In this document: piece after piece, positions 3 through 26,353 of the stretch
Layout of the letters: every line of letters starts with the position of its first letter
Position numbering within the stretch: position 1 is the first letter of the stretch
Virus record (IMG/VR): IMGVR_UViG_3300027771_000073
Location: 1 to 28,747 of that record
Length of the DNA stretch: 28,747 bases
DNA from: a virus
Taxonomy: Duplodnaviria; Caudoviricetes
Reading direction: 5' to 3' (one strand)
Notes under the pieces: generated by a model
What the model saw: only the letters and a program-made list of their open reading frames with translations
Database searches by the model: none
What the model was told of the DNA's origin: nothing
Program-made: the position numbers and the translations under genes

Positions 3-3000
3 TATACTAAGTTGTGGGACAAGGCTTACAATAAAGATTATGTGGATGCTTTAGGTGACAACTATGTTAAAACATATACTAAAGATTATCAAGCTGACTA
101 TACAAAAGTTTGGTCTACAATTTATACTAAAACCTATTCAAAAGATTATAGTGCTGACTATACAACTGTGTATACAAGGATATGGCAGAGTGCAGACTTT
201 AGTAGGATATGGGACGGCCCAGTAGATTATGTTAAAGCATATACAGGTGCTGCAACATGGACAGGAACTCAGAATTATATTGTCAACTATGTTAAGACAT
301 ATACAGGTGTGCTTGATTATGTTAAATCATATCGTACAGATGTTACTTATATAGGTGAAGTAAACTATAGTAAGATTTATTTTAAAGCTTATGTAGGTAC
401 ATTATCTTTCACAGGTATTCATAATTTTGCAGGAGACGTAGCTTATAATAAACTTTATACAGGTGTTGCTTCTAACTACAGTATAGCTGGATATTTAAAA
501 TTATATGAAAAAGATTATTTAAAAAATTATACGGCAGTGTATACTAAGATCTGGGAAAAGGATTATGTTAAAGATTATAGTACTGACTATTTAAAAACTT
601 ATACAAAAATTTGGTCTAAGGATTATGTAAAAGATTATCTAAAAGATTATACTAAAATTTATACTAAAATATGGAATAAAGATTATATAAAAGAGTATAC
701 AAAAGTCTGGCAAAAAGCCTATACTAAGATATGGAATAAAGATTATCTTAAAATATATGTTGAATCATATGCAAAGGCTTATGTAAAAGATTACGATAAA
801 GAATATACAAAAATATGGGTAGGTCCTACTTACTATGGTGGCTATGAGTCTGGATCAGATGAAACTAACTATACTAAAATCTATACTAAAATTTGGTCTA
901 AAGATTATGTAAAAGATTACGTACATTCATTTGCAAAAGATTATTCAAAAGACTATAATAAATTATATGCTAAAGATTATGTAGATGTATATGAAGGCTC
1001 TTTTGATGCCAACTATACAAAGGTATGGGCTAAGATATGGGTTAAAGATTATGATGCCATCTATCTTAAAAATTATGTAAAGGCTTATGATGCCGCCTAT
1101 ACTAAGATATGGGTTAAGACTTATACTAAGGCTTACGATAAAATATATGAAGGTTCATTTGATGCAGACTATACAAAAGTATATGTTAAGACATATACTA
1201 AAGACTACTCTAAAGACTATGGTAAAGTTTATACTAAGACGTGGGCCCAACATTGGCATAAAGATTATGTTAAGACTTATACAAAGATCTGGACTAAAGA
1301 TTATACAAAGATTTATGCTAAAGTATGGGTTGGTGAATACAATAAAGATTATATAAAAGACTACACTAAAATTTATACTAAACTCTGGTCTAAAAATTAT
1401 GTAAAAGCATATGAAGGTTCTTTTGATGGATCGTTTGGTGCCAACTATACTAAGATCTGGGTTGGACCAACATACTATGGTGGCTATGAGTCAGGATCAG
1501 ATGAGACTAACTATACTAAAATCTATGCTAAGGTATGGGTTGGTTCTTATGTAGGTGTCTACAATAAAGATTACGTTAAAGATTATGATGCAGTTTATAC
1601 TAAGATCTGGTCTAAAAATTATGTTAAAACATATGAAGGTTCATTTGATGCTAACTACACTAAGGTATGGCAAAAAGATTATTCCACTGACTATCTTAAA
1701 AACTATGTTAAAGCATACCAGTTATCTTGGACTAAAACTTACACCACAATTTATACTAAAATATGGGATAAAACATATACAAAGATCTGGGTTGGACCAA
1801 CTTACTATGGTGGCTATGAGTCTGGATCAGATGAAACTAACTATACTAAAATCTATACTAAGGCGTGGGATAAAGAATATACTAAGGTATGGTCTAAAGA
1901 CTACCATGTAGATTGGGCTAAAGATTATGGAAAAATATGGACTAAAGTATATTCAAAAGATTACCTTAAAGATTATACTAAAATTTGGTCTAAGGTATGG
2001 GTTGGAGAGTATACTAAGCTTTGGGAAAAAGATTACCTTAAAGATTATACTACAGTATATACTAAGATATGGAATAAAGATTATGTAAAAAGTTATACAA
2101 AAGTATGGTCAAAAGATTATGCTGTTGATTATACTAAAATTTATGCTAAAGTATGGGTAGGAGAATATACTAAAGGTTGGGTTAAAGGTTACGTTAAAAC
2201 TTATACTAAAATTTATACTAAACATTATGATGCAGAGTGGACAAAAAATTGGGTAAAAACATATACCACAATTTACACTAAAGACTATACAACAATTTAT
2301 CTTAAAAATTATGTAAAGGCTTATGATGCCAACTATACTAAGATCTGGACTAAGAACTATCTTAAAAACTATGTTAAAGATTATGAGACAGACTATGTTA
2401 AAACATATACAAAGATCTGGTCTAAAAATTATGTTAAAACATACACTACAGACTATACTAAGATCTGGACTAAAACATATACAAAAGCATATGAAAGAAT
2501 ATGGGCTGTATGGATTGCGTATTATTCTGGGGTAACAGCTTACACATCACCAAAAGCATACACTGCATCTTACACAGGCATATTAAGTTACACAGGTAAC
2601 TATGCATCAGGTGGCTTCTCAAAAGATTATGTTAAAACTTATACAACAATATATGTTAAAACATATTCAAAAGATTACAATAAAGATTATGCATCAGACT
2701 TCTCACGTAACTGGCACAAACTTTGGCAAAAAGATTATGGTACTGAGTACGGTGCTGATTATGCTAAAGATTGGGTTGGACCTACTTACTATGGTGGTTT
2801 TGCTAGTGGTAGTGATACATCTGTTTATAATAAAGTATATGGTAAAGTGTGGACAAGAGATTGGGCTAAGAGTTATGATGCATCTTACACCGCAGTATAT
2901 ACTGGTGCATTTACAAAAACATACACTAAAGATTATAATAAAGACTATACTAAAATTTGGGAGAAGACATATACTAAAGTTTACGAAGGTGGGTCTGCTG

Positions 3001-3500
3001 GTACAAGAACATTCTCAGCTGAAGTATCATTCTTAAATCCTGCTACTGCAGTATCATATGTAAGTGTAAAAAATTATACTACCGGTCTACTGTTCTTTGC
3101 ATTAACAAATTACCTTAAAACTTATACAAAGGCATACACTAAAGTGTGGACTAAGATATGGTCAAAAGATTATAATAAAGACTATACTAAAATATATGCT
3201 GATGGTGATGATAACTATACTAAGATCTGGACTAAAACTTATACAAAAGATTACAGCACAGATTATACTACAGTATACAATAAAGATTATGTAAAAACTT
3301 ATGAGGGTGAAGCTATATTTAATTACAGAGGTACATTTGATGGTCTAATAAATTACAATAAAATATATACTAAGGTTTATAATTTAGATACTAACTTCCT
3401 TCAAACATATAGTCCAACATATACAGGGGATCAATATTTTGAAATAGCTTACACAGGTGAAAGAACATCACATTCAACTTATGTTGGACCTACAAACTTT
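3..3500 (+). repeat. Degenerate 12-nt (4-codon) coding repeat array, [YWF]-x-K-x
   Basis: Aromatic residue every fourth position (YTKI WSKD YVKD...), interrupted by 5-7 residue units and loop motifs at 816-869, 1458-1511, 1788-1841 and variant 2772-2825. Confidence 0.95.
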
Positions 3501-4697
3501 GTTGGATCACATAGTGGTGCATTAGCAAATACTAAACCTCAATTGTTTATTAAGAAAGATGATAACTGGGAACAAGCTAAGAAGCTATGGGTAAGAGAAG
3601 ATGATGTATGGAAAGAAGTACCTTACTTCCATAGTAAAGAAGGTGGTAATTGGAAACTTGTAAACATAGGATATAAACATACAGATGTATATCTTGATTC
3701 CCATGTAGGTAGTGCTCAAGCTAATACAGCTAGTGAATATTATTTAAGAGGTGAAAATGATACAACTGCTACTCCAGATACGTTAGGAGAGTTCTCATCT
3801 AAAGGTTCAGCAACTATTACAGGACACGAAGGTGCTAAGACATCTTACTTTGTAAATGAATTCAACCTAAAAGAATTCTTAGATCATAAAGGTAGAGACA
3901 GTGGAACTTATCCAACAATGACTACTATCCACGTTGGTCAACAAAATCAATTTGATAATTATTTTGTAATGGGATCTAACAATGCAGCAAGACCTGCTAT
4001 TGATCTAACTGGATTTGCATCTATATCAATTAATCAAACAGACGGTGGTAGTGCTCAATCATTCCAACACTTAGTAAGAATTGTTACATATAACAATGGT
4101 TACATTGTAGGTGCTGGTGGAGCTGGTGGAGCAGCTGCAGATAATACAGCAGGTGCTGATGGAGCAAATGGTGGTTCAGCTATTAAGACTGATGCTCATG
4201 TTAAATTATTTGTAGAAAATTATGGTACTATAGGTGGTGGAGCTGGCGGAGGTGGTGCTGGTGGCTTGACAATGTATAGTGATCCGTTAACTGGTGACAA
4301 ATCATCTGAGTTTACTAACCAATCAGGTTCTGGTGGCGGTGGTGGTGCTGGCTTCCCAGGTGGTGCAGCAGGTGCAACAGCAAGTGCTGTAACAGCAGCC
4401 TCAACAGCAGGCCAGTTATTAGTAGGTGGTACAGGAGCTAAACCAGATATATCTACAACACATAACTCAAGAGTATCAGGAGGTACAGGTGGTGTGCTAG
4501 GTGGTATAGGTTATGGTGCTAATATGGATAAAACTGTGACAGGCGTCTCTACAAGAACAATTTGGGCTATGAGTGGTGATGGTGGTATACCAGGTAAAGC
4601 TGTTGATGGATTTGATGCAGCTAGAGTTCACTTTACAGGACCAGGTGGATCTAATAGAGGTAACATTGCTGGTGATGAAACATTCAAATTGGCATAA
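3..4697 (+). CDS. Giant aromatic-x-Lys-x tetrapeptide-repeat fibre-like protein with C-terminal glycine-rich adhesin-like domain (5' partial)
   Basis: The frame is open from the window edge (TAT ACT AAG TTG TGG = YTKLW), so TTG at 12 is not a real start. Repeats run to about 3500. They are followed by a W-containing linker (IKKDDNWEQAKKLWVREDDVWKEV...KEGGNWKLV) and Gly-rich motifs (NNGYIVGAGGAGG...ENYGTIGGGAGGGGAGG) resembling T-even gp38-type adhesins. Confidence 0.8.
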   Translation, partial: YTKLWDKAYNKDYVDALGDNYVKTYTKDYQADYTKVWSTIYTKTYSKDYSADYTTVYTRIWQSADFSRIWDGPVDYVKAYTGAATWTGTQNYIVNYVKTYTGVLDYVKSYRTDVTYIGEVNYSKIYFKAYVGTLSFTGIHNFAGDVAYNKLYTGVASNYSIAGYLKLYEKDYLKNYTAVYTKIWEKDYVKDYSTDYLKTYTKIWSKDYVKDYLKDYTKIYTKIWNKDYIKEYTKVWQKAYTKIWNKDYLKIYVESYAKAYVKDYDKEYTKIWVGPTYYGGYESGSDETNYTKIYTKIWSKDYVKDYVHSFAKDYSKDYNKLYAKDYVDVYEGSFDANYTKVWAKIWVKDYDAIYLKNYVKAYDAAYTKIWVKTYTKAYDKIYEGSFDADYTKVYVKTYTKDYSKDYGKVYTKTWAQHWHKDYVKTYTKIWTKDYTKIYAKVWVGEYNKDYIKDYTKIYTKLWSKNYVKAYEGSFDGSFGANYTKIWVGPTYYGGYESGSDETNYTKIYAKVWVGSYVGVYNKDYVKDYDAVYTKIWSKNYVKTYEGSFDANYTKVWQKDYSTDYLKNYVKAYQLSWTKTYTTIYTKIWDKTYTKIWVGPTYYGGYESGSDETNYTKIYTKAWDKEYTKVWSKDYHVDWAKDYGKIWTKVYSKDYLKDYTKIWSKVWVGEYTKLWEKDYLKDYTTVYTKIWNKDYVKSYTKVWSKDYAVDYTKIYAKVWVGEYTKGWVKGYVKTYTKIYTKHYDAEWTKNWVKTYTTIYTKDYTTIYLKNYVKAYDANYTKIWTKNYLKNYVKDYETDYVKTYTKIWSKNYVKTYTTDYTKIWTKTYTKAYERIWAVWIAYYSGVTAYTSPKAYTASYTGILSYTGNYASGGFSKDYVKTYTTIYVKTYSKDYNKDYASDFSRNWHKLWQKDYGTEYGADYAKDWVGPTYYGGFASGSDTSVYNKVYGKVWTRDWAKSYDASYTAVYTGAFTKTYTKDYNKDYTKIWEKTYTKVYEGGSAGTRTFSAEVSFLNPATAVSYVSVKNYTTGLLFFALTNYLKTYTKAYTKVWTKIWSKDYNKDYTKIYADGDDNYTKIWTKTYTKDYSTDYTTVYNKDYVKTYEGEAIFNYRGTFDGLINYNKIYTKVYNLDTNFLQTYSPTYTGDQYFEIAYTGERTSHSTYVGPTNFVGSHSGALANTKPQLFIKKDDNWEQAKKLWVREDDVWKEVPYFHSKEGGNWKLVNIGYKHTDVYLDSHVGSAQANTASEYYLRGENDTTATPDTLGEFSSKGSATITGHEGAKTSYFVNEFNLKEFLDHKGRDSGTYPTMTTIHVGQQNQFDNYFVMGSNNAARPAIDLTGFASISINQTDGGSAQSFQHLVRIVTYNNGYIVGAGGAGGAAADNTAGADGANGGSAIKTDAHVKLFVENYGTIGGGAGGGGAGGLTMYSDPLTGDKSSEFTNQSGSGGGGGAGFPGGAAGATASAVTAASTAGQLLVGGTGAKPDISTTHNSRVSGGTGGVLGGIGYGANMDKTVTGVSTRTIWAMSGDGGIPGKAVDGFDAARVHFTGPGGSNRGNIAGDETFKLA

Positions 4698-4706
4698 TTA
4701 ATATAT

Positions 4707-4714
4707 CATAAATA
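4707..4714 (+). promoter_or_regulatory. Probable T4-type late promoter variant (CATAAATA)
   Basis: One mismatch to TATAAATA, in the short intergenic gap, upstream of AAGGTG (SD-like) and the ATG at 4734. Confidence 0.6.
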
Positions 4715-4733
4715 AGTAGGTAAAGGTGAACCT

Positions 4734-7700
4734 ATGGCCAACCCACTAAAGATAAAATATTCAGGTAGTACATTCAACGGTCTTCAAACTATGACCAATG
4801 AAAATATGGATCATACTGTCCATCAAATTCTTACTGAGTTTGTGGCTAATACTGGTCCTGGAATTATTTCTACCTCAGGTGATTATACATCTATAGGTTC
4901 TTTTGTTGATACTAGAAGAACAGAAGGTGTAGGTCAAACAACACCAGGTGGTGCTACATCAACTGTCAGTACAACAACAGTACGCCAATGGCAAGGTAAT
5001 AGCAACAATGATGAGTCTGGAATGGTCAGACCATTAGAGTACGTTTCAAGTACATATCCAATTCAAGAACAAACAGACACAACATTAAATGCTTCAATAA
5101 TAAACAGAGCATTAACTAATTTAGTTTCTAATGGTGTTGGGTCTTATGTTATGAATCCTTCTCAACCAAATAGTCAATACACTTCTATACTTACTTTATC
5201 AGATACAGTAACAGGTAATGGTACAGCTTCTAATACAACAACACAAATTTGGAGAAGAACAACTGGTGCCAGCACAACAGCACTATATCCTCTTAAACTT
5301 GGTAGTAGTAGTGGTTCACTTAATGAAATGTCTAATACTAATCTAGCAGCATTTATTAGTAGGTTTAGAAATCAAATGATGACTACTGGTATTGGTAAGT
5401 ATGTATTACAGGAGAATGCTCCAGCATCAGGAACATGGTTAAGACAGGGAGTTGCTTTTACAGATAGAAGACATATATTAGGTTCTGGTAAAACATATAC
5501 AAAAGCTTATACTAAATCTTATGGTGCAGACTATTCAGCTGACTATACAAAAACTTATACCTCTGTATATGTTAAAGAGTATGCTGGTGAATATTCTAAG
5601 ACTTATACAAAACTATATGGTAACTCATATGAAAAAGTTTACGTAGGTGGTTATGCTACAGACTATAGTAAGACATATACTAAAACATATACAAAAACAT
5701 ATGATGGAGAGTATACTAAAACATATACTAAGTTGTGGGTGGGTGAAGTAAATTATACAAAAGATTATGTTAAAGATTACAACAAGGCTTATGAAAAAAT
5801 TTATACTAAAACCTTTACTGGTGACTATACAAAAATTTGGACTAAACTTTATGATAAGATATATGTTAAACAATGGACAAAGAATTATACAAAAGCATAT
5901 ACATCTGCTTACTTAAAAGAGTATATAAAGTTATGGTCAAAAAACTATGTAGCTTCAGAAACATTTGATCACAATTGGGAAAAAATATACACTCATGCAT
6001 GGACAAAGTTATATGAAAAAACATATGTTGGGGACACAGTGTATGGAGGTTCATCAGCTAAAAGTTATTTAACTAACTACGATAGAATATATGAAGGTAC
6101 GTATACAGGAGCAAAAGTATATACAGGTGCATACACTAGCGTTGTTAATTATGAACAGCATTATGCAGGAGACGTTGCATATGAAGGTACCTTTGATGTT
6201 AACTATGCAAAGAATTGGTCTAAGACATACTCAGTTGATTATTTAAAAGGTTATGGTAAAGCATGGTCTAAAGATTATATTGGTAATTACATTCACACAT
6301 TTGTTGGATCATATTCAAAAGATTACTCTGTTGAATATACACATAACTGGACAAAAGAATATAGCAAGATATATGAAGGACATTTTGCTGGTGGTGCATA
6401 TGAAAACCAATGGGAAAAAGGCTACGTTAAATTATATACAAAATTGTGGACTAAAACCTATACAGGTAACTATACAAAGAATTGGGTCAAGTCATATATT
6501 ACACAATACCAAAAAGTTTGGGAAACATCTTATGCTCAAGAATGGCATAAGCTCTATACTAAGATATGGACAAAAGATTATGTTAAGAAGTATCAAAATA
6601 ATTGGTTTAAAAACTATGTAAAAAATTATGAAACAGATTATGTTAAAGCCTATACAAAAATTTATACTAAGTTATGGGATAAGGATTATGTTAAAGCCTA
6701 TACTAAGATCTGGGAAAAAGATTATACTAAGATATATTCAAAAGTATGGTTAGGGTTATATACTAAAGGTTGGGTTAAAGGATATACAAAGGACTATGTA
6801 AAAGCATACACTAAAGTTTGGTCAGCTGATTATAGTACTGACTACAATAAAGACTATATAAAAAATTATGTTAAAACATATACTACAACTTATGAGGGTA
6901 CATTCACAACTGGCTATACTAAAATTTATGCAAAGGTATGGTTGGGTGAGTATACTAAAGGTTGGGTTAAAGGTTATGTAAAAGCTTATGATGCTGCATA
7001 CGAAGGTTCGTTTGATGCTAACTATACTAAGGTATGGCAAAAAGATTATGATGCAGTGTATACTAAGATCTGGACTAAGACATATACTAAAGCATATGAT
7101 AAAGTATACGAAGGTTCGTTTGATGCTAACTATACAAAGATCTGGAATAAAGATTACACTAAGATATATGAAGGTTCTTTTGATGCTAATTATACTAAAG
7201 TATGGGATAAAGAATACACTAAGATTTGGGTAGGTCCAACTTACTATGGTGGCTATGAGTCTGGATCAGATGAGACTAACTACACTAAAATTTATGTTGG
7301 TGCCTGGACTAAAATATATGCTAAAGTATGGGTAGGGGAATATACTAAAGTATGGACTAAGGCCTATGACAAAGTATATGCAAAGGTTTGGGTAGGTGAG
7401 TATACTAAATTATATGAAAAAGATTATCTAAAAGACTACACTAAAATTTATACAAAGATCTGGACTAAAGATTATACAAAGATTTATGCTAAAGTATGGG
7501 TAGGTGAGTATACAAAGATCTGGAATAAGTTATACAACAAAGATTATGTTGATGTATATGAGGGGTCATTTGATGCTAACTATACTAAGATCTGGACTAA
7601 AAATTATGTAGGGGTTTATACTAAAGTATGGAATAAAGATTATATAAAAAATTATGTTAAGACATATACTAAAGTTTGGACTAAGTTATGGGAAACAGAT

Positions 7701-10700
7701 TACCTTAAAAATTATCAAAAGCTATACAATAAAAATTACGTAGATGTATATGAGGGATCGTTTGATGCAGACTATACTAAGATATGGACTAAGACATATA
7801 CTACTGACTATCTAAAAAATTATGTTAAATCTTATGATGCTGATTATAGTAAAGACTATCTTAAAACCTATACAAAGATCTGGCAAAAAGATTATGTTAA
7901 AAGATATAGAAAAAATTACCTCAAAACATATTCCAAAGATTATGAAACAACATATGAGAAAGCATACCAACAATCATTTTCTGCCAGATACTTAAAACAT
8001 TATGAAGGCGACTATACTAAGATATGGGAAAAGAATTATGTTAAAACATATGTAAAAGCCTGGGAAGCTGAGTATGCTAAAGAGTGGCATAGATTGTGGA
8101 CTAAAGATTATGTTAAAGATTATTCAGCTGACTATACTAAAAATTGGGTTAAGACTTATACAAAAATATATGAAGGATCTTTTGATGCTGCGTATACAAA
8201 AGTATGGTCTAAACTTTGGGATAAAGATTATGTCAAAACATACACCACTATCTATACCAAACTATGGGACAAGGATTATGTAAAGACTTATACAAAGTTA
8301 TGGTTGAAAGATTATGATAAAGTGTATACTAAGATCTGGTCAAAAGACTATACTAAAATCTATGCTAAAGTTTGGCTAGGGGAATATACTAAAGGTTGGG
8401 TCAAAGGTTATGTTAAAGCCTATGATGCTGTGTATGAGGGATCGTTTGATGCTAACTATACAAAGGTATGGGCTAAAGATTACAGTACAGACTATCTCAA
8501 AAATTATGTTAAAACATATAGTAAGGCCTATGATAAAGTATACGAAGGATCGTTTGATGCTAACTATACTAAAGTATGGGCTAAAGCTTATGATGCTGTA
8601 TACGAAGGATCGTTTGATGCTAACTATACTAAAGTGTGGGCTAAAGATTATGGTAAAGACTATACTAAAATATATGAGGGATCATTTGATGCTAACTATA
8701 CTAAGATCTGGGTTGGACCAACTTACTATGGTGGCTATGAGTCTGGATCAGATGAGACTAACTATACTAAAATCTATGCTAAAGTCTGGCTAGGTGAGTA
8801 TACTAAAGTTTGGGCTAAGGTATGGACTAAAGATTATACAAAGATATACTCTAAAGTTTGGGTAGGAGAGTATACTAAAATTTGGCAAAAAGATTATACT
8901 AAAATTTATGCAAAAGTATGGGTAGGTGAGTATACAAAAGTTTGGACTAAAGATTATCTTAAAGATTATGTTAAGACTTATACAAAGATCTGGACTAAAG
9001 ACTATACTAAAATATATGCAAAGGTTTGGGTTGGAGAGTATACTAAGATTTGGAATAAGCTATACAATAAAGATTATGTAGATGTATATGAAGGTTCGTT
9101 TGATGCTAACTATACTAAGGTATGGGTCAAAGATTACTCCACAGACTATACTAAAGCATGGCAAAAAGCTTATTCAAAAGACTATCTTAAAAACTATGTA
9201 AAGAGTTATGATGCAGAGTATACTAAGATCTGGGAAAAAAATTATGTAAAGAGTTATGGTGCTGACTATACTAAAATTTATAATAAGGTATGGGTAGGAG
9301 AGTATACAAAGATCTGGGAAAAAGATTATGTAAAAATCTATACAAAGTTATGGTCTAAAAATTATCTTAAAGATTATGAGGCAGCATATCAAGACTCGTG
9401 GACTGCAAATTATGTAAAAGCATATGAAAAGCTATACACAAAAGTATGGACTAAAGCATATGAGGGATCATTTGATGCTAACTATACTAAGATATGGGTT
9501 AAGACTTATACAACAGATTATAATAAAGACTATCTTAAAAATTATGTCAAGGCCTATACAACAACATATGATAAAGATTATGTTAAAGCCTATACTAAGA
9601 TCTGGTCAAAAGACTATACTAAAATATATGCTAAAGTCTGGCTAGGGGAATATACTAAAGGTTGGGTTAAAGGTTATGTTAAAGATTATGTGAAAACATA
9701 TACAACAACTTATGAAGGTACATTTGATACAGCATATGTTAAAACCTATACTAAGGTATGGAATAAAGATTATGTTAAAAATTACGTAAAGACATACAGT
9801 AAAGATTATGATGCTGTATATGAAGGATCCTTTGATGCAACATATGTTAAAACATATTCCAAAGATTACACTACAACCTACGATAAAGATTATCTTAAAA
9901 TTTATGTTAACACATGGGCTCAACATTGGCATAAAGATTATGTTAAAACTTATACTAAAATTTGGACTAAAGACTATACAAAGATTTATGCTAAAGTATG
10001 GGTGGGTGTATATGAAAAAGATTATGTAAAAGACTACACTAAAATTTATACAAAACTTTGGTCTAAAAATTATGTTAAATCATATGAGGGATCTTTTGAT
10101 GGTTCATTTGATGCTAACTATACTAAGATATGGGTAGGCCCAACTTACTATGGTGGCTATGAGTCTGGAGATGATGAAACTAACTATACTAAAATTTATG
10201 CTAAGGTATGGGTTGGTTCTTATGTAGGTGTGTACAATAAAGATTACGTTAAAGATTATGATGCAGTCTATACCAAAATTTGGTCCAAGACTTATGTTAA
10301 AGCCTATGAAGGTAGCTTTGATGCTAACTATACTAAAGTATGGCAAAAGGATTATTCAAAAGACTATCTTAAAAACTATGTTAAAGCATATCAATTATCT
10401 TGGACTAAAGATTATACAAAGATTTATGCTAAAGTATGGGATAAAGAATACACTAAGATTTGGGTAGGTCCAACATACTATGGTGGCTATGAGTCAGGAT
10501 CAGATGAGACTAACTATACTAAAATTTATACTAAAGTATGGGGTAAAGATTATACAAAGATATGGTCTAAAGACTACCATGTTGATTGGACTAAAAATTA
10601 TGAAAAAGTATGGACTAAAATTTATACTAAGATCTGGACTAAAGACTATAATAAAGATTATGCAAAGGTTTGGGTAGGTGAGTATACAAAGATCTGGGTT

Positions 10701-12326
10701 AAAGATTACAACAAAGATTATCTTAAAAATTATGTAAAGACATATACAACAGACTACAATAAAGATTATGTTAAAACATACACTGGTGTGTATACTAAAA
10801 TATGGGAAAAGAATTACCAGAAATTATATAATAAAGCTTATGCTGATGCGTACGAAGGATCGTTTGATGCCAACTATACTAAGATCTGGACTAAAGATTA
10901 TTCTACAGATTATCTTAAAAACTATGTTAAGACATATACTAAGATATGGAATAAAGATTATATAAAAAATTATGTTAAGACCTATACTAAAGTTTGGAAT
11001 AAAGATTATGATGCTGTGTATGCTAAAGTATGGGTGGGTGAATATGAAAAAGATTATACAACAATCTATACGAAGTTATGGTTAAAAGATTATGTTAAAA
11101 TTTGGCATGCTAATTGGACTCATGAGTGGGTAACTAACTATGATAAAGATTATGTAAAAACATATACAACTGTATACTCAACTCTATGGGAAAAAAATTA
11201 TGATAAGGATTGGCATACTGACTGGTTTAGAGAATGGGAAAAATTCTATACTAAGAATTGGGATAAAGATTATGTAACTGTCTACACTGGTACATTTGAT
11301 ACAGACTATTCAGTTAATTATGGAAGAGTGTGGACTAAAGCATATGTAGCTCACTACGAAGGTTTATGGCAACAAGAGTTTACTAAGCAATGGACAAAAG
11401 ACTATGAGGCTTCTTATACAAAACTTTGGACTAAAGAATGGTTGGGTGATTATAATAAAGAGTTTATCTCAACATGGACAAAAGACTATCTTGTAGAATA
11501 TCAAAAAACTTATACTGCCGACTATACTAAAACATATTCAAAATCCTACACTAAAGTATGGACAGGTTCATATTCTGGTCCTGTAAGATATACAAAACTG
11601 TGGTCAGGTGATACAGAATTTGTAGGTACAAATTGGGCACTTGCAACATTTGTTGGAGCTTACACTACTGAGTATACAACAGGATGGACTAAAGTTTATG
11701 AGGGTGGCTACACTAGTGCAACATCATACATTAAAGAATATGAAAAATCATACGATAGAGATTATACAAAAGCATACACTGGAACATATACAGGTGATAG
11801 AGCTTATACAAAAGTATGGCAAGCATCTTATGAAAGAACATATGATAGAGACTACACAAAGACATATAGTACAGACTACGAAGCAAACTATACAAAAGAT
11901 TATTCAAAAGATTACACTGCTGTATACACAGGAACCTTTGATCGTAACTATACTAAAAATTATGACAAGACATATACAAAGATATGGTCTAAAATATATG
12001 TAGGAGAAGTGAACTTTAGTGTTGACTACAACAAGGTATATGTGGGACAATACAATAAGAATTATACAAAAGATTATTCTAAAACATATAGTAAGATTTG
12101 GGAAGCAAATTATATTAAAGAGTATAGTGGTGACTGGGCTAAAGATTATATCAAACTATATGGTGGATCATACACTAAGGCATATACGGCTGTTTATACA
12201 AAGATATATAATAAGGTATGGTCTAAAGTTTGGAACAAAGATTATAACAAAGCATACGTCGGTACTAACATAGATGATGAAACTGAAGTGATAAGCACAG
12301 TGAGTTTATGGGTTAGGACCGCTTAA
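4734..12326 (+). CDS. Giant 2530-aa tetrapeptide-repeat virion fibre-like protein (three-module anchor domain plus ~2250-aa repeat insertion)
   Basis: ATG with SD and a late-promoter-like element. The 254-aa non-repeat N-terminus contains three related modules (PLK..LQ/NEM..G.G....S.....DT/DR). Repeats span 5496-12266, then a short tail ETEVISTVSLWVRTA. Confidence 0.85.
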   Translation: MANPLKIKYSGSTFNGLQTMTNENMDHTVHQILTEFVANTGPGIISTSGDYTSIGSFVDTRRTEGVGQTTPGGATSTVSTTTVRQWQGNSNNDESGMVRPLEYVSSTYPIQEQTDTTLNASIINRALTNLVSNGVGSYVMNPSQPNSQYTSILTLSDTVTGNGTASNTTTQIWRRTTGASTTALYPLKLGSSSGSLNEMSNTNLAAFISRFRNQMMTTGIGKYVLQENAPASGTWLRQGVAFTDRRHILGSGKTYTKAYTKSYGADYSADYTKTYTSVYVKEYAGEYSKTYTKLYGNSYEKVYVGGYATDYSKTYTKTYTKTYDGEYTKTYTKLWVGEVNYTKDYVKDYNKAYEKIYTKTFTGDYTKIWTKLYDKIYVKQWTKNYTKAYTSAYLKEYIKLWSKNYVASETFDHNWEKIYTHAWTKLYEKTYVGDTVYGGSSAKSYLTNYDRIYEGTYTGAKVYTGAYTSVVNYEQHYAGDVAYEGTFDVNYAKNWSKTYSVDYLKGYGKAWSKDYIGNYIHTFVGSYSKDYSVEYTHNWTKEYSKIYEGHFAGGAYENQWEKGYVKLYTKLWTKTYTGNYTKNWVKSYITQYQKVWETSYAQEWHKLYTKIWTKDYVKKYQNNWFKNYVKNYETDYVKAYTKIYTKLWDKDYVKAYTKIWEKDYTKIYSKVWLGLYTKGWVKGYTKDYVKAYTKVWSADYSTDYNKDYIKNYVKTYTTTYEGTFTTGYTKIYAKVWLGEYTKGWVKGYVKAYDAAYEGSFDANYTKVWQKDYDAVYTKIWTKTYTKAYDKVYEGSFDANYTKIWNKDYTKIYEGSFDANYTKVWDKEYTKIWVGPTYYGGYESGSDETNYTKIYVGAWTKIYAKVWVGEYTKVWTKAYDKVYAKVWVGEYTKLYEKDYLKDYTKIYTKIWTKDYTKIYAKVWVGEYTKIWNKLYNKDYVDVYEGSFDANYTKIWTKNYVGVYTKVWNKDYIKNYVKTYTKVWTKLWETDYLKNYQKLYNKNYVDVYEGSFDADYTKIWTKTYTTDYLKNYVKSYDADYSKDYLKTYTKIWQKDYVKRYRKNYLKTYSKDYETTYEKAYQQSFSARYLKHYEGDYTKIWEKNYVKTYVKAWEAEYAKEWHRLWTKDYVKDYSADYTKNWVKTYTKIYEGSFDAAYTKVWSKLWDKDYVKTYTTIYTKLWDKDYVKTYTKLWLKDYDKVYTKIWSKDYTKIYAKVWLGEYTKGWVKGYVKAYDAVYEGSFDANYTKVWAKDYSTDYLKNYVKTYSKAYDKVYEGSFDANYTKVWAKAYDAVYEGSFDANYTKVWAKDYGKDYTKIYEGSFDANYTKIWVGPTYYGGYESGSDETNYTKIYAKVWLGEYTKVWAKVWTKDYTKIYSKVWVGEYTKIWQKDYTKIYAKVWVGEYTKVWTKDYLKDYVKTYTKIWTKDYTKIYAKVWVGEYTKIWNKLYNKDYVDVYEGSFDANYTKVWVKDYSTDYTKAWQKAYSKDYLKNYVKSYDAEYTKIWEKNYVKSYGADYTKIYNKVWVGEYTKIWEKDYVKIYTKLWSKNYLKDYEAAYQDSWTANYVKAYEKLYTKVWTKAYEGSFDANYTKIWVKTYTTDYNKDYLKNYVKAYTTTYDKDYVKAYTKIWSKDYTKIYAKVWLGEYTKGWVKGYVKDYVKTYTTTYEGTFDTAYVKTYTKVWNKDYVKNYVKTYSKDYDAVYEGSFDATYVKTYSKDYTTTYDKDYLKIYVNTWAQHWHKDYVKTYTKIWTKDYTKIYAKVWVGVYEKDYVKDYTKIYTKLWSKNYVKSYEGSFDGSFDANYTKIWVGPTYYGGYESGDDETNYTKIYAKVWVGSYVGVYNKDYVKDYDAVYTKIWSKTYVKAYEGSFDANYTKVWQKDYSKDYLKNYVKAYQLSWTKDYTKIYAKVWDKEYTKIWVGPTYYGGYESGSDETNYTKIYTKVWGKDYTKIWSKDYHVDWTKNYEKVWTKIYTKIWTKDYNKDYAKVWVGEYTKIWVKDYNKDYLKNYVKTYTTDYNKDYVKTYTGVYTKIWEKNYQKLYNKAYADAYEGSFDANYTKIWTKDYSTDYLKNYVKTYTKIWNKDYIKNYVKTYTKVWNKDYDAVYAKVWVGEYEKDYTTIYTKLWLKDYVKIWHANWTHEWVTNYDKDYVKTYTTVYSTLWEKNYDKDWHTDWFREWEKFYTKNWDKDYVTVYTGTFDTDYSVNYGRVWTKAYVAHYEGLWQQEFTKQWTKDYEASYTKLWTKEWLGDYNKEFISTWTKDYLVEYQKTYTADYTKTYSKSYTKVWTGSYSGPVRYTKLWSGDTEFVGTNWALATFVGAYTTEYTTGWTKVYEGGYTSATSYIKEYEKSYDRDYTKAYTGTYTGDRAYTKVWQASYERTYDRDYTKTYSTDYEANYTKDYSKDYTAVYTGTFDRNYTKNYDKTYTKIWSKIYVGEVNFSVDYNKVYVGQYNKNYTKDYSKTYSKIWEANYIKEYSGDWAKDYIKLYGGSYTKAYTAVYTKIYNKVWSKVWNKDYNKAYVGTNIDDETEVISTVSLWVRTA
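5496..12266 (+). repeat. Degenerate 12-nt coding repeat array with four copies of a 54-nt loop motif
   Basis: [YWF]-x-K-x units; WVGPTYYGGYESG(S/D)DETN at 7227-7280, 8709-8762, 10131-10184 and 10461-10514. Confidence 0.95.
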
Positions 12327-12346
12327 CAATAAGAGGACTTTATAAT

Positions 12347-13288
12347 ATGAATAATAAAGAGCAAGGAAAATTGTTTGATTATTATGCTGTTGAAGAACTT
12401 AGAAATACCTATTTTTTTATGGATTGGAAAAATAATACTGTTAATCCATTATACCCAGCTTTGTCCGAAATCATAAAGCCCAACGTAAAAATGACACCAC
12501 AAGAGCATAAAGAGAATGGAAATATTGATGATAAATATATTACTGGAGCCAGTAAAATGACACCACAAGAGCATAAAGAGAATGGAGATTTTGATGACGC
12601 ATCAGTAACTGAGCATGCTTCAACTGAAGCAGAGCAAGCTAATAGAACAATAGATGCCAGAGAAGAAAAATCAAAAGACCGTTTAAATATTAACAGACCA
12701 CCACCCCAGACAACATCTTGGGAGAGAGAGAATAATATTATGGAAGAAGAAAAAACCAAGGTTGTAGCTCGTGCTGATGATGAGAAGCAACCGGAGAAAA
12801 AACAAGAACAAAAACAGGAACCGAAGTTTCCGTTCAATGATGCAGAGCCAATCTTTGCTTACTACGGTAATGATAAAAAATCTCTTATGCATTTCATTCT
12901 AAGACATCCAGACGGCCCACAAGGTCAACCTGGACCTACAGACGCACACCAAATTCATAATACCAAAGAACATCAAGACGCTTGGTATTGGGTACATAAG
13001 CTCGTAGGTCAAGAAGCTATCAATAGAAATACTAAAAAAGAAATTGATCGTCTTGATAAGATGAGAAAAAAAGAAGAAGTAGGTGATAAGGATCGTCAGC
13101 ATAAAATGGATCAAGAGAAGTTGTTCCAAGCTAAGATAGATGCTTTTGAAATGGATGTGATTCGTAATACAACTAATAGAGATATGAAATCTAAAATTAG
13201 AAGATCAAAAAGTATTATGGAACTGACCGCTTACGTAGGCGCAATTATAGCATTGGAGAGTATGAATGGAAAACCAGCAACAGACTAA
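12347..13288 (+). CDS. Hypothetical protein (charged, low-complexity N-terminal half; helical C-terminal domain)
   Basis: 313-aa ORF with GAGG SD upstream. A possible second start lies at ATG 12740, preceded by GGAGAGAGAG. No recognisable catalytic motif. Confidence 0.75.
   Translation: MNNKEQGKLFDYYAVEELRNTYFFMDWKNNTVNPLYPALSEIIKPNVKMTPQEHKENGNIDDKYITGASKMTPQEHKENGDFDDASVTEHASTEAEQANRTIDAREEKSKDRLNINRPPPQTTSWERENNIMEEEKTKVVARADDEKQPEKKQEQKQEPKFPFNDAEPIFAYYGNDKKSLMHFILRHPDGPQGQPGPTDAHQIHNTKEHQDAWYWVHKLVGQEAINRNTKKEIDRLDKMRKKEEVGDKDRQHKMDQEKLFQAKIDAFEMDVIRNTTNRDMKSKIRRSKSIMELTAYVGAIIALESMNGKPATD
12488..12586 (+). repeat. Exact 33-bp direct repeat (12488-12520 and 12554-12586), 66-bp period
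   Basis: AAAATGACACCACAAGAGCATAAAGAGAATGGA occurs twice in frame, encoding KMTPQEHKENG. Confidence 0.9.
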
Positions 13289-14126
13289 AGGATTTATGTT
13301 AGTTGCTTCATTTTCTAAACCTTATTATGATGCAGCTGTTATGTGTGCTGATTCAATTAAAGATTTTTATCCTGAAGCAAAGATAGCTATCTATACACAT
13401 AAAGATTGGTTCCAAGAAGAACATAGACATTTATTTGATCATGTTCATTTGGAAGTGCCAGTCCATGTCCGAGCTAAGCTCTGGGCACTAACAAAAACTC
13501 CTTATGATATAACAGCATATATTGATGCAGATATATATTGTCAGCACCAAGACGTCAGGCATATGTTTGACGAAATAGATGACGAGCATGACATGGCAAT
13601 GACATGCAATAGACCGTACAATGCAAAAGTAGTTTATATAACTCGTGATGAAGAATTAACTCATTATAAGCCAGAACATAAAGAACTTATTAAGACAGCA
13701 AAAGTTCATGAGTGGGACTTTAAAGGTCCTGAAGGTTGTTGGCGTATGAAGTGGCACTGTGGTATGTTTGTTTATAAAAAGAACAATCGTACATTTAAGA
13801 TGCTAGATATGTGGTATAAAAATTATAGGACTCAGATTGAATCTAATCCTAGAAAGAACTGGCCTTACGATTTCCCTCACACGTTATGGTATTGGGATAC
13901 ATTTGCTTTTTTTAATACTAACTACAAAACAGACTACGGTGTAAAAATAAAAGAAATTCATTCTAAGTGGAACTATATCAAAGGGTATAGACCTGAGGTT
14001 GAATTAAAAAATAACGAAGAGCCAGTATTCTGGCATTACACAATACCAAATGACTTAGTAGATAGGAGCACATACAATGACCCCGGTATACGAGATACAA
14101 TCGGAGATTTTAAAATTATTAAATGA
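13266..14126 (+). CDS. Putative GT-A fold glycosyltransferase (GT8-like / nucleotide-diphospho-sugar transferase)
   Basis: N-terminal Rossmann-like start (GFMLVAS..Y...A...ADSIK), RAKLWAL..TPYDITAYIDAD (DxD), CGMFVY, KWNY and a C-terminal HY. Confidence 0.7.
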   Translation: MENQQQTKGFMLVASFSKPYYDAAVMCADSIKDFYPEAKIAIYTHKDWFQEEHRHLFDHVHLEVPVHVRAKLWALTKTPYDITAYIDADIYCQHQDVRHMFDEIDDEHDMAMTCNRPYNAKVVYITRDEELTHYKPEHKELIKTAKVHEWDFKGPEGCWRMKWHCGMFVYKKNNRTFKMLDMWYKNYRTQIESNPRKNWPYDFPHTLWYWDTFAFFNTNYKTDYGVKIKEIHSKWNYIKGYRPEVELKNNEEPVFWHYTIPNDLVDRSTYNDPGIRDTIGDFKIIK

Positions 14127-14829
14127 GTGGAAAACATTTGTCTGGGGCTTAGACATGTCAACACTCATGACACGAAAAGGAAAGTTCTTTAGAGAAAACA
14201 GATCATTGTATGCAACAAGCATTGAATGTTTAAACTCTATGGAGCATGATACGCATGATGGCTTTCCACCTGACTCACATGGTTACGATTTTAATCAGAT
14301 AGCTACATGGGTCAAGAATGATCACATTAAAGATTTATCATTAGCAAAAGTAATACAAGAAAAGAACCAGTGGCTTGATAACGAGTTGGGTGCATTGCTT
14401 GGTATAAGATTTTGTGCATTGAAGATGTGGTATCCAAAAGATGGATACATTGCATGGCACAACAATTGGAATGTACCAGGGTACAATGTTCTATTTACAT
14501 TTACAGAAACTGGTAATGGTTTCTGGAGACATATTAATCCTGAAGGTTCTAAAGGCAAGATTAATAAACCTATTGAAAAGAACTTAGTACATATACCTGA
14601 TGTACCAGGATGGCATATGAAGACTGGCTATTATGGTAAGAAGGAAGAAGAAGATAAGATTATGTGGCATAGTGCTTATGGTGGTGAGCCAAGAATGACT
14701 TTAGGGTATGTTGTATACAATGAAGAGATATGGAAAAATATGGTAGAAGATATTGCCGGCAAAGCATTAGTGTGGCCACTAGCACCATTTGATAAAACTA
14801 TGTTACCTAAGGGAGCTACGTATTCATAA
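14077..14829 (+). CDS. Putative double-stranded beta-helix / 2OG-Fe(II) oxygenase-like protein
   Basis: YPKDGYIAWHNNW...MWHSAYGGEPRMTLGY: proximal His, distal His and R-x-T arrangement, but H-x-N in place of H-x-D/E. Confidence 0.5.
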   Translation: MTPVYEIQSEILKLLNEWKTFVWGLDMSTLMTRKGKFFRENRSLYATSIECLNSMEHDTHDGFPPDSHGYDFNQIATWVKNDHIKDLSLAKVIQEKNQWLDNELGALLGIRFCALKMWYPKDGYIAWHNNWNVPGYNVLFTFTETGNGFWRHINPEGSKGKINKPIEKNLVHIPDVPGWHMKTGYYGKKEEEDKIMWHSAYGGEPRMTLGYVVYNEEIWKNMVEDIAGKALVWPLAPFDKTMLPKGATYS

Positions 14830-15254
14830 TGCCAAACAACACAGCAGGAGTAGAGTTACCTGAATATTTTATACCTTGTCGTGGTAGTATTATGGATTAT
14901 TATAGACAAGTGGTGAACAATCGAGGTTGGAAAAACTATCTTGTCACAACATATAATGATACATATCAAGGTTATGATAATGTATTTAAATTTAGAGCTG
15001 AATTAAATGAACGTATACCTTTTGATTATGATGCTAAGTTAAGAGAGCATATAGTTAGAAAATCTAACATACGATATGTTAATCATGGCAGAGATGGTAT
15101 GATTGAAAAGTTCTTCCTCCAAGATCATCACACACTGCTTCATATCATATGTAGCAAAAGAGTTGATACGTTAACACTAATGCATAGAGATGAACAACCT
15201 GATAAACAAATAGATGAGTGGCTAACAATTAAAAGAAAATATTATTATGAATAA
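14829..15254 (+). CDS. Hypothetical protein
   Basis: 141-aa ORF coupled to the upstream gene (TAATG overlap, GGGAG SD). Confidence 0.7.
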   Translation: MPNNTAGVELPEYFIPCRGSIMDYYRQVVNNRGWKNYLVTTYNDTYQGYDNVFKFRAELNERIPFDYDAKLREHIVRKSNIRYVNHGRDGMIEKFFLQDHHTLLHIICSKRVDTLTLMHRDEQPDKQIDEWLTIKRKYYYE

Positions 15255-15957
15255 CATATTTGTTGTAAAGACAATACCAGAGAAAGCCACAGTCAAAGAA
15301 AAGTATAAAGATGCTCATGTGTGGGACATCTTTTGGCAATGTAAGAATTACTACAAGAAGCCATTTAAGTTTTATTTACTAACAAACTTTACAACTGTTA
15401 ACCATCCTGAAATTAAAATTGTTGATATATCTAAATTTAAGTATGATGGTTGGTGGAATAAAATGTTACTGTTCCATCCTGATATAGATAAAGAAGGTAC
15501 TAATCTATACTTTGATTTAGATACCACATTCCATAGAGACATATCAGATATTGATAAGTACATATCACCTGGTCTTCTAACATCTGTATTTTGTTATTGG
15601 AAGCCAATTGATTGGTTAGACCGGAGTGCTCAACCTAAAGAATTACAAGACGATCCTGATATGAAATATCCATCTATGTTTAATTCATCTGTGATGGGTT
15701 GGCAAGGCCATACATTAACAAGTATATGGGATGACTTTAAAGATGATGATCAACGATACTTGTTAGAGTATAGAGGTAATGATGATTATCTAGGACACAA
15801 ACAATTAGATAAGTTGAAAGCTCTTCCAAGAGGTATATGTTATTCACAGTACTATGGAGCAGATGTTGGTTCTGAATTCTTTCCTAGAGATAAAAAGAGC
15901 AACATTAAAAGAGATAATTATTATATAAGGTTACTGAATGGTCCAGGAAAAGATTAA
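15247..15957 (+). CDS. Putative GT-A glycosyltransferase
   Basis: GWWNKMLLF, NLYFDLD (DxD), FNSSVMGW and YRGNDDYL motifs typical of phage/bacterial nucleotide-diphospho-sugar transferases. Confidence 0.7.
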   Translation: MNNIFVVKTIPEKATVKEKYKDAHVWDIFWQCKNYYKKPFKFYLLTNFTTVNHPEIKIVDISKFKYDGWWNKMLLFHPDIDKEGTNLYFDLDTTFHRDISDIDKYISPGLLTSVFCYWKPIDWLDRSAQPKELQDDPDMKYPSMFNSSVMGWQGHTLTSIWDDFKDDDQRYLLEYRGNDDYLGHKQLDKLKALPRGICYSQYYGADVGSEFFPRDKKSNIKRDNYYIRLLNGPGKD

Positions 15958-16684
15958 CTTAATGACAATTAAGTGGGGTGATAAGTTTGCAGCTGAGTAT
16001 CCTAACCTAATTCATAGAATGGCCAAACGTCACATGCCTTGTGAGTTTAATTCATATTGTATGACTGATGATCCTACTGGTTTAGATAAAGACATTATAC
16101 CTGTTGAATGTACAGAGAAATGGTTATGGGATGATATACTATCAATGAAGCAATGGTGGTTTTGGGATGCAATTAAAATGTCTTTGTTTGCTCCTAAGTT
16201 ATGTGGTATAGAAGGTAAGATATTATTTACAGATCTAGATAACTTATTTTTAAATAGACTGGACAGAGTAATTCAAACAACCCCTCCAGCAATAATAAAA
16301 ACAGATTGGAATGCTAATTATCATTTAGGAATGCATAGTGGTAATTATTTTCTTACTATGGGATTCAATGCTAGTTTAATTTATGTGGACAACACATCAC
16401 CAGTAACAAAAGAAATATGGGATCACTTTGTAAATTATTATGACAGAGCAAAAGGTTCTTTGTATAGTAGTGATGCATATTTATGGAGATGCCATAGAGA
16501 TAAGATTAATACATATCCTGAAGGTACTGTATACTCACATAGTAGAGGTGCAAAGTATCCTGATCAACAAAAAGGAAAGTATAGATCAGATCATGAGGTC
16601 TGTGTTTTTATGGAAGACCATGAACCTGATCCTTTAGATATAAAAAAAGGTTGGGAGGCTGACTTATGCAAGTTGTATCTGTAA
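15938..16684 (+). CDS. Putative GT-A glycosyltransferase
   Basis: TIKWGDKF..EY.N, YCMTDDPTGL, IKMSLF, ILFTDLD (DxD), FNASLI. Confidence 0.7.
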   Translation: MVQEKINLMTIKWGDKFAAEYPNLIHRMAKRHMPCEFNSYCMTDDPTGLDKDIIPVECTEKWLWDDILSMKQWWFWDAIKMSLFAPKLCGIEGKILFTDLDNLFLNRLDRVIQTTPPAIIKTDWNANYHLGMHSGNYFLTMGFNASLIYVDNTSPVTKEIWDHFVNYYDRAKGSLYSSDAYLWRCHRDKINTYPEGTVYSHSRGAKYPDQQKGKYRSDHEVCVFMEDHEPDPLDIKKGWEADLCKLYL

Positions 16685-17337
16685 AGGTTGGTAAACTATA
16701 TGGTGTTGAATATGTCAACCAGTTATATAAACAACTGTTGACCTTCCATAAAGATTGTGTATACTATTGTATGACAGATGACCCAGAAGGGTTACATAAA
16801 GACATACAGATAATAAAAATTACTGATAGCTTTAAAGAACGTAAGTGGTGGAACAAGATAAAGTTATTTGAACCAGGTCTTTTTAATGAGCCTACTATCT
16901 ACTTAGATTTAGATTGTTACATACATACACCATTAGATAAGTTCCTAGAAACCTCTCATCCTGATAAACTAAACATTCTTAAAACAGCATGGTTCAGTGA
17001 TGGTATAGCAAAAAAAATACATATGTGTAATGTTAACTCATCTATAATGGTTATTAATGATCATAATTGTGAGCCTATGTGGAAAGAGTGCCATGACCAT
17101 ATAGATCGAATGTACAAGAGTTTCTATGGGTTAGATCCATGGTTGTACAGGAGACATATGAGTAGCATGCAATTCTTTCAACCTGGGTTAGCTTATTCAT
17201 TTAAACATGGTTGTATGTATCCATTAGATATAGAACAAAATAAATTAAGACAATTACCAGTATGCATATTTGATGATGCACAAAATAGAAAAGAGGTGTT
17301 AGATGGACTATGGCAAAGTTCAAAAGTTATGGGCTAA
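16666..17337 (+). CDS. Putative GT-A glycosyltransferase
   Basis: VKVGKLYGVEYVNQL, YCMTDDPEGL, WWNKIKLF, IYLDLD (DxD), NSSIMV; paralogous to the two preceding ORFs. Confidence 0.7.
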   Translation: MQVVSVKVGKLYGVEYVNQLYKQLLTFHKDCVYYCMTDDPEGLHKDIQIIKITDSFKERKWWNKIKLFEPGLFNEPTIYLDLDCYIHTPLDKFLETSHPDKLNILKTAWFSDGIAKKIHMCNVNSSIMVINDHNCEPMWKECHDHIDRMYKSFYGLDPWLYRRHMSSMQFFQPGLAYSFKHGCMYPLDIEQNKLRQLPVCIFDDAQNRKEVLDGLWQSSKVMG

Positions 17338-19753: not shown

Positions 19754-19761
19754 TATAAATA
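19754..19761 (+). promoter_or_regulatory. T4-type late promoter TATAAATA
   Basis: Exact consensus in the intergenic gap ahead of AAGGGAG SD and ATG 19790. Confidence 0.85.
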
Positions 19762-21679: not shown

Positions 21680-21683
21680 TTAA

Positions 21684-26263: not shown

Positions 26264-26288
26264 ACTTTATTCTCGAGCCCATGGTTCT

Positions 26289-26296
26289 TATAAATA
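26289..26296 (+). promoter_or_regulatory. T4-type late promoter TATAAATA
   Basis: Exact consensus in the gp17-gp18 intergenic region; AAGGAG SD precedes ATG 26354. Confidence 0.85.
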
Positions 26297-26353
26297 AATA
26301 CAAGAAGTTCAAATAAATTTTGAAGATCAAAACATCCATAAGGAGAGAGAAAC

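Follow-up and report, generated by a model that had tools for sequence, protein, structure and literature searches.

Nested strand complementarity in a long repeat protein of an uncultured T4-like phage, and the case for a branched antiparallel β-ribbon

How is one to read a repeat region of well over two thousand residues in which one stretch after another seems to be answered, in reverse order, further along the chain? The question is raised by an open reading frame at positions 4734–12326 of a 28,747-nucleotide stretch of DNA from an uncultured T4-like phage (IMG/VR record IMGVR_UViG_3300027771_000073; the whole stretch is referred to below as the window). Its product is 2530 residues long and contains a repeat region of 2257 residues, made up of 558 units each led by an aromatic residue, 521 of them four residues long. 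An earlier note, written by a model from the letters alone, claimed that this region has an exact nested mirror symmetry and proposed that each pair of mirrored stretches forms a stem of an antler-like fibre. The answer reached here, by computation on sequences, is that nested antiparallel pairing in some form is very nearly certain, and that a single chain likely folds back as a branched two-stranded antiparallel β-ribbon with three forks and four tips. The family libraries Pfam, PHROG and NCBIfam offered neither a fibre family nor any family covering the protein; what they did return was Hexapep, with 0 passing stretches, and a 100-residue match to phrog_5353 (unknown function).

The most direct evidence lies in the arrangement of the units themselves. 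Four copies of one 18-residue loop mark four tips, and distances along the paired strands can be read outward from these loops. All 16 of the coordinates checked from the earlier note begin with the words given for them, and the stem lengths it listed (Table 1; 8+8 and 43+43 units for the internodes) were recovered, all six branch stems being balanced. The distances at which units with Gly in third position occur were also as described: in 20,000 permutations the observed degree of matching was never reached for arms 1 and 2 or for the long internode, while for arm 3 p = 0.0013. The word “exact”, however, is justified for the lengths of the branch stems but not throughout. Outside the trunk, Gly units are matched in 19/20 cases on the left and 19/20 on the right, the two unmatched ones being in arm 1 (right, distance 2) and in the short internode (left, distance 6). 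The trunk is mirrored but not exactly so: its two sides have 82 and 83 units and slip by one unit near 6024–6066. Its Gly-Gly plus long-long matches nevertheless number 18, as against 6.8 ± 1.5 in shuffles (0/5000 reach 18), while in parallel orientation there are 6, which is the shuffle level. Arm 4 and the 8+8 internode are without a Gly match, and are supported by equal length together with a learned pairing score. It should be stressed that the mirror is complementary, rather than a palindrome of identical words; for instance, YEGS-FDAN faces YAKV-WVGE.

Two folding tests bear on whether such pairing could arise by chance. In the supervised version arms 1 and 2 served to train a pairing matrix, with which the held-out segment 9399–11102 was then folded, giving a score of 125.6 against shuffle maxima of 19, 29 and 50 (blocks of 1, 2 and 4 units respectively, 60 shuffles each). 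In the de novo version the nested fold trained itself without any assumed pairs, the only prior being that Gly faces Gly. This recovered all eight stem segments (the trunk in two, arms 1–4 and both internodes) with a score of 692, whereas the maxima in four sets of 25 block shuffles given the same treatment were 128, 167, 217 and 348. Stem length alone fails to distinguish real from shuffled sequences in this test, but the score does so. A previous supervised fold had misplaced one short stem and given only 18 trunk pairs, both of which faults the self-trained fold corrected.

Orthologs provide a further, and rather different, line of evidence. Contig scans yielded 5 viral and 12 metagenome loci, some of them duplicates, and comparison of these shows that a fork is marked by three conserved words: A on entering, B between the arms and C on leaving. 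If T stands for a tip loop, the trees can be written as strings: ATBATBATBTCCC for the window protein and ortholog L005, ATBATBTCC for L016 and ATBTC for L017. These are binary trees with four, three and two tips respectively, and in 4/4 parsed orthologs the number of tips equals the number of forks plus one; the counts of A, B and C are equal in 10/10 proteins, comprising 20 forks in total. Branch stems are balanced in 18/18 cases in the window protein, L005, L016 and L017, with arm 1 comprising 57, 61, 65 or 44 units, and the trunks have 345/344 residues in all four; over these four, Gly matches outside the trunks amount to 75/82 on the left and 75/76 on the right. When left and right strands are aligned independently, the same net insertion is found on both in 7/7 stem comparisons, one example being 4 units inserted at rung 31 of each strand. 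The two strands place the 4-unit insertions, scored against the window, to within 3 rungs of one another, and likewise a 9-unit insertion in the long internode; for a 9-unit insertion in arm 2 the strand positions differ by 12 rungs, the site lying in duplicated blocks. Balanced changes of this sort could come from gene conversion between arms, since the hairpin from any rung to the tip is contiguous in the DNA. In L016 the distal part of arm 1 has the same Gly pattern as that of arm 2 in the window.

The most unusual ortholog is L007, which reads AABTCABTCBTC: here two forks are joined head to head through a 2+2 stem, and one of them is permuted (order B-C-A), its free stem being closed by an 8-residue loop. 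As the permuted fork breaks the grammar, L007 stands outside the automatic stem count; a count by hand gives 7+7, 2+2, 5+5, 5+5 and 6+6. This pairing, first read by eye, was also returned by the de novo fold. The L007 trunk is 561/560 residues long, with the forks near its end. Both L007 genes (8981–14095 and 1181–8962) contain such a double fork, joined head to head and circularly permuted at one junction. In the window protein the tips lie 577–629 residues from the root, and the root-to-tip distance is 525–665 residues for 16/16 tips of five orthologs of differing shape, L007 included. Histidine is scarce in the stems: there are only 16 His in the 2257 residues, largely at forks, and they cluster at the fork words at 6531, 8073, 9915, 10575, 11103 and 11211, where they might bind metal or cap the junction.

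What, then, is the code by which partner strands recognise one another? Mutual information in arms 1–4 peaks on two antidiagonals (300 shuffles), and pseudo-likelihood couplings over 664 rungs (910 unique rows with symmetry, effectively about 210) resolve this pattern further. The register defined by the Gly-Gly pairs of the earlier note, here called c, is coupled on both faces, through Lys-Lys and Gly-Gly and through Thr-Ile, Thr-Asp, Val-Asp and Val-Asn. Register c+2 is coupled only on the aromatic/Lys face (1.35 vs −0.01), where the pairs are Tyr-Lys, Trp-Ala, Trp-Thr, Phe-Gly and Tyr-Gly, and c−2 only on the other face (1.55 vs −0.19). Eight sets of toy backbone models were built, of which five were discarded for losing hydrogen bonds, one came out almost flat, and two were coiled ribbons that kept all their hydrogen bonds; in both coiled ribbons c+2 is close on the hydrogen-bonded face and c−2 on the other, with a rise of 2.6–3.1 Å per residue. 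The couplings may thus be taken as the handed signature of a twisted two-stranded antiparallel ribbon in register c, but as support rather than proof, because the rungs share ancestry. At this rise the trunk would measure about 90–107 nm and root to tip 150–195 nm, so that the earlier figures for a fully extended chain (about 115 nm and 190–210 nm) are fair as upper bounds. No second lateral register was found in the pseudo-likelihood couplings; indirectly, this speaks against a closed barrel.

The tree would be held at both ends by a domain that can be described rather better. The first 254 residues form three repeats (self-alignment 32% and 29%). Each of repeats 1 and 2 finishes with a hairpin, the returning strand of which is similar to the last residues of the whole protein, while repeat 3 breaks off ahead of that strand; given this, the tree is most simply seen as an insertion in the hairpin loop of the third anchor repeat, closed by the C-terminus. 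At E ≤ 0.001 there are 265 relatives among 50%-identity representatives, and in 89 of 158 family proteins examined, with sizes of 466 to 4046 residues, the start of the anchor and the closing motif occur together; an anchor-only protein search gave nothing at E ≤ 1e-5 among long proteins. Just one of 50,697 GenBank phage records has a family match, that of phage C48C1, which encodes a 3347-residue member (WJE88074.1, L002:13638–23681). This member has Arg-rich 8-residue units, a duplicated stretch near residues 2030–2130, and several globular inserts between its repeat runs, possibly branches with tip domains.

An AlphaFold model of a short relative, P0085, was obtained from 84 sequences. Its predicted local distance difference test (pLDDT) values are mostly above 90 for residues 1–245 and 490–513, i.e. 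the anchor and the C-terminal strand, and long strands (234–258 and 479–511) leave and enter the anchor domain. Foldseek gave no match to this model at E ≤ 0.001 in PDB or BFVD, although the query was not the anchor alone and a new fold is not thereby implied; the best VIA Z scores with the model are 7.3 and 4.0. The best structural matches are MABP/β-prism-like domains, aligned from residue 42 to the C-terminus: MACPF 8b6v (Z 7.3, root-mean-square deviation 3.6, 120 aligned), 2qp2 (Z 7.2) and MVB12B 3tow (Z 6.4, root-mean-square deviation 3.7, 109 aligned). With VIA Z of 5.6–7.3 (middling, below 8), identity of 7–12% and an alignment covering less than half of the domain, they allow no function to be inferred, but they would fit a pseudo-three-fold β core closed by the last strand. 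A profile of the 84 relatives found only compositional matches among PDB sequences, 0 PDB sequences match 9399–11102 at E ≤ 1, and an atlas search of the repeats gave at best 0.89, to a match without a name and with low recognition.

Folding against shuffles, the matched insertions of the orthologs and the coupling pattern together support the nested antiparallel pairing and the branching that the earlier note had put forward. Its suggestion of structure prediction was less fruitful, in that no stem or fork was confirmed; the AlphaFold run on junction 3 (9879–10622) was unusable (pLDDT 26.7), its input being 6 sequences, two of which are out of step by one unit along part of arm 3. There are several further points that tell against a branched single-chain ribbon. 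In the P0085 model the middle of the repeats is of low confidence (pLDDT below 50 for 260–389 and 432–475), and residues 370–450 are built as a solenoid, which resembles pentapeptide-repeat folds (Z about 5). Rungs cannot be counted as independent, since duplication relates the stems to one another, and the junction-word patterns were written after the sequences had been seen. Covariation recovers the register in the Lys-rich clade, but a family-wide scan showed no register peak, and a crude Gly/length mirror reaches z ≥ 3 in 14/77 distant members as against 9/77 for the parallel orientation. Weak periodicity of a direct kind is also seen, at lags of 5, 9 and 14 units (z 3.7–4.9), of which the 5- and 9-unit periods fit the sizes of duplication blocks. 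To our knowledge there is no solved precedent for a bare two-stranded ribbon longer than 100 nm, and such a ribbon leaves two free edges exposed. Lastly, covariation is blind to the difference between pairing within a chain and pairing between copies. Fold-back pairing is thus established for the Lys-rich clade and not for the whole family, of which distant relatives may use another code; two distant short members, P0062 and P0101, have a mirror signal that is strong and without branching (z 16.6 and 12.3).

With these points in mind, the branched single-chain ribbon is likely built as follows. The sequence itself divides into an anchor, a stem and a branching, binary arrangement of stems whose two strands are equal in length, with words A, B and C marking the forks and the 18-residue loop the tips. 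Partner strands are complementary in the statistical sense described above, with Lys-Lys, Gly-Gly and Thr-Ile/Thr-Asp/Val-Asn as lateral pairs and Tyr-Lys, Trp-Ala/Thr and Phe-Gly as diagonal ones, and their contacts would be those of a coiled two-stranded ribbon with one aromatic/Lys face and one Thr/Val/Asp face. The whole tree would be the loop of the third repeat in a pseudo-three-fold anchor that the C-terminal strand completes; both ends would then meet at the root, and one chain would suffice. To judge from its context, the anchor would attach to the baseplate or a tail fibre. Most tentatively, the tips would form a multivalent capture canopy, with the neighbouring gp38-like protein giving specificity. 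Taken as a whole, it seems on balance probable that this is an RNA-like protein architecture, with a residue-level pairing code, a portable and permutable three-way junction and a standard tip loop, tuned in marine T4-like phages to 2–4 tips at a reach near 600 residues, so placing a capture canopy about 150–215 nm from the anchor.

Of the other possible explanations, the one that survives best is that the same antiparallel registers are met between copies, in an intertwined dimer or trimer of fold-back chains that is branched as a whole, somewhat after the manner of the needle of the T4 long-tail-fibre protein gp37. This would bury the aromatic face and the free edges, covariation could not see the chain identity, and the conserved His of the junction words could bind metal as in the gp37 needle. 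Antiparallel strands are indeed known from the tip of a three-chain fibre: this needle, as far as PMC9659904 describes the work of Bartual et al. 2010, is a six-stranded antiparallel domain of three intertwined chains; the statement in the earlier note that characterised phage fibres are typically parallel trimers needs this addition. A closed barrel, however, predicts a second register on both faces where only one is seen, three anchor repeats are already present within one chain, and L007, with its 2-unit stems and its permuted double fork, would be difficult to accommodate in a barrel. Intertwined copies are accordingly regarded as unlikely. Rather improbable, too, is a bundled fibre rather than an antler, in which the pairing tree holds but one ribbon lies with its face against another, be it a second arm or the upstream paralog. 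A continuous aromatic/Lys ladder does run along one face, arm 1, arm 2 and the long-internode path are similar in length with tips ending within about 50 residues of one another, and both the repeats and a copy of junction 3 recur in the upstream gene; against this, arm number and length vary freely among orthologs (44–65 units, 2–4 tips), and the lining of the aromatic face by Lys (347/520 regular units) argues against a fixed packing partner.

A parallel β-helix or solenoid with an incidental mirror order has in its favour the four-residue aromatic period, the Hexapep match without a passing stretch, the low-confidence solenoid in the P0085 model and the weak periodicity, but it leaves balanced stems of changing length, matched insertions and nested fork words without explanation, and neither the parallel trunk score nor the Gly-Gly matches at fixed lags (at most 20 vs 12 expected) encourage it; it is considered very improbable. 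Least credible of all is that the mirror order simply reflects DNA duplication or assembly and has no structural meaning. The arms do have blocks in common and the tip loops are near-identical in DNA, but duplication would produce repeats in direct order, the words that face each other are complementary instead of alike, the gene occurs on contigs that are independent of one another, and the balance of the stems is preserved in orthologs. Indeed the gene is not an assembly artefact, because its longest exact DNA repeat is 47 nucleotides, a second contig carries it with 1 difference in 7593 bases, and the trunk differs from that of L016 by 129 synonymous and 111 non-synonymous codon differences in 689 codons.

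Table 1 Features of the repeat gene and of its immediate neighbours, in window coordinates.
Position	Strand	Feature	Basis or partner
3..4697	+	Upstream repeat gene, 5′ end beyond window	2554 residues in L001 (L001:2300–9964); same repeats, tip loops, gp38-like adhesin end
4734..12326	+	Whole gene: anchor domain, ribbon tree (proposed), closing strand	Open reading frame, 2530 residues; no covering family
4734..5495	+	Anchor domain, three internal repeats, third open at hairpin (proposed site of tree insertion)	Self-alignment 32% and 29%; P0085 model
5496..6530	+	Trunk, outgoing strand, 345 residues, 82 units	Mirror matching, de novo fold
6531..6542	+	Junction 1, word A	Partners B 7965–7976, C 11211–11222
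6543..7964	+	Arm 1, 57+57 units, tip loop 7227–7280	Gly matching, equal lengths, de novo fold
7977..8072	+	Short internode, outgoing, 8 units	Partner 11115–11210; no Gly match
8073..8084	+	Junction 2, word A	Partners B 9387–9398, C 11103–11114
8085..9386	+	Arm 2, 52+52 units, tip loop 8709–8762	Gly matching, equal lengths, de novo fold
9399..9914	+	Long internode, outgoing, 43 units	Partner 10587–11102; Gly matching, held-out fold
9915..9926	+	Junction 3, word A	Partners B 10389–10400, C 10575–10586
9927..10388	+	Arm 3, 17+17 units, tip loop 10131–10184	Gly matching, equal lengths
10401..10574	+	Arm 4, 5+5 units, tip loop 10461–10514	Equal lengths, de novo fold
10587..11102	+	Long internode, returning strand	Partner of 9399–9914
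11115..11210	+	Short internode, returning strand	Partner of 7977–8072
11223..12254	+	Trunk, returning strand, 344 residues, 83 units	Mirror matching, de novo fold
12255..12326	+	C-terminal strand, proposed counterpart of hairpin strand missing from anchor repeat 3	Sequence likeness; family consensus ends in same motif; P0085 model strand pLDDT >90
12347..14829	+	Three downstream genes: 313 residues, unknown; 286 residues, glycosyltransferase-like, below cut-off; 250 residues, weak hydroxylase lead (0.86)	

As regards function, the window is a structural module of a T4-like phage, with neck, tail-sheath stabiliser, terminase and sheath genes at 20939–28549, and a small tail-fibre-like gene with a Peptidase_S74 domain lies further upstream of the repeat genes. 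Elsewhere in the family related aromatic-led repeats are fused to baseplate wedge subunits (P0008, P0011, P0039 and P0041) or to gp38-like adhesins (P0015, P0016 and P0044). Because of this gene context and these fusions the product of 4734–12326 is probably a virion appendage. Multivalent capture is judged the most likely role, since the tips are identical and aromatic-rich, their number variable and their reach roughly constant; a purely mechanical or shielding role is possible. As to the host, the closest terminase matches to named phages (57–59% identity) are common to Methylophilales phages and cyanophages, and no host was identified from them. RNA runs included one sample with short contigs on the gene, several of them at full identity, from which transcription is not thereby shown. 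Exact T4-late-type TATAAATA sites number three in the window, which is below the chance number; these, at 19754, 26289 and 28550, are all intergenic and lie ahead of or just past structural genes. A one-mismatch TATAAATA-type site ahead of 4734 was not counted as late-promoter evidence.

The upstream protein appears to have a larger tree of its own, with several other turn types, three short Trp-Lys repeats, a copy of junction 3 that is about 85–89% identical and a further fork type without the A/B/C words; its automatic folds include doubtful short stems. Its orthologs in L007, L012 and L015 carry extra arms. The three downstream genes are kept behind the orthologs wherever the contig reaches, and stand in the same order behind the C48C1 member; they may fold or coat the ribbon. 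The first of them has a short duplicated segment near its start (12347–12600) that is unmatched in relatives, while its C-terminal part is conserved, also in C48C1. Beyond them, a block of glycosyltransferase-like and unknown genes at 14829–17899 is inverted in L005 (10623–14100) and L010 relative to the window; for the 482-residue gene at 17896–19344 no match was found in the L005/L010 block.

If the proposed architecture is correct, it would be a new kind of fold, in which shape comes from nested long-range strand complementarity and is legible, as in RNA, from one sequence. Contacts would span up to 2250 residues, making it a sharp test of how registers are found during folding; stem code, fork, tip and anchor would amount to a natural parts list for branched protein nanostructures; and uncultured marine T4-like phages would possess an undescribed adsorption device, relatives of which are numerous among 50%-identity representatives and rare in GenBank phages. 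The predictions (arm length ratios, antidiagonal contacts) are concrete and cheap to test. No description of such a protein or design was found in the searches of the open literature. Its distinguishing elements are the multi-fork tree, the conserved permutable fork motif, the matched insertions and the handed coupling pattern.

Comparison with known systems helps to place these elements. Pentapeptide and hexapeptide solenoids have a period of 5 or 6 residues, whereas here the period is 4, the mirror signal is strong and the lag signal weak. The gp38-type adhesin (Pfam PF05268, phrog_2056), a glycine-rich C-terminal domain, is absent from the 4734–12326 protein, which has its 18-residue loop tips instead, but it does end the upstream repeat protein and so ties the repeat family to adsorption devices. 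In the T4 gp37 needle, which comes nearest among known devices, each chain runs out and back, and there are metal-binding His-x-His repeats along the needle, to which the few, fork-centred histidines noted above bear no resemblance. The two share an elongated antiparallel β structure, in the present case by sequence statistics only, and a T4-type tail-fibre setting; but the needle, so far as it is described in PMC9659904, has about 215 residues and is unbranched, while here there are about 2250 residues, some ten times more, with one lateral register and three forks, and no homology to gp37 or any other solved fibre appears in the family and PDB searches given above. The capsid fibres of phage 7-7-1 are, in the account given in PMC12796354, long and flexible (about 88–114 nm) and serve first multivalent capture. 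The likeness is in a long fibre for such capture, a role proposed here for the tips; by that description, with which the comparison is made, the 7-7-1 fibres differ in sitting on the capsid and in being proposed as a trimer. An analogy may also be drawn outside proteins: as in RNA secondary structure, with its stems, hairpin loops and three-way junctions, there is nested complementary pairing, amenable to the same kind of parsing algorithm, with compensating insertions and a permuted junction, the difference being that this is a protein, and that its pairing code is one of graded side-chain complementarity.

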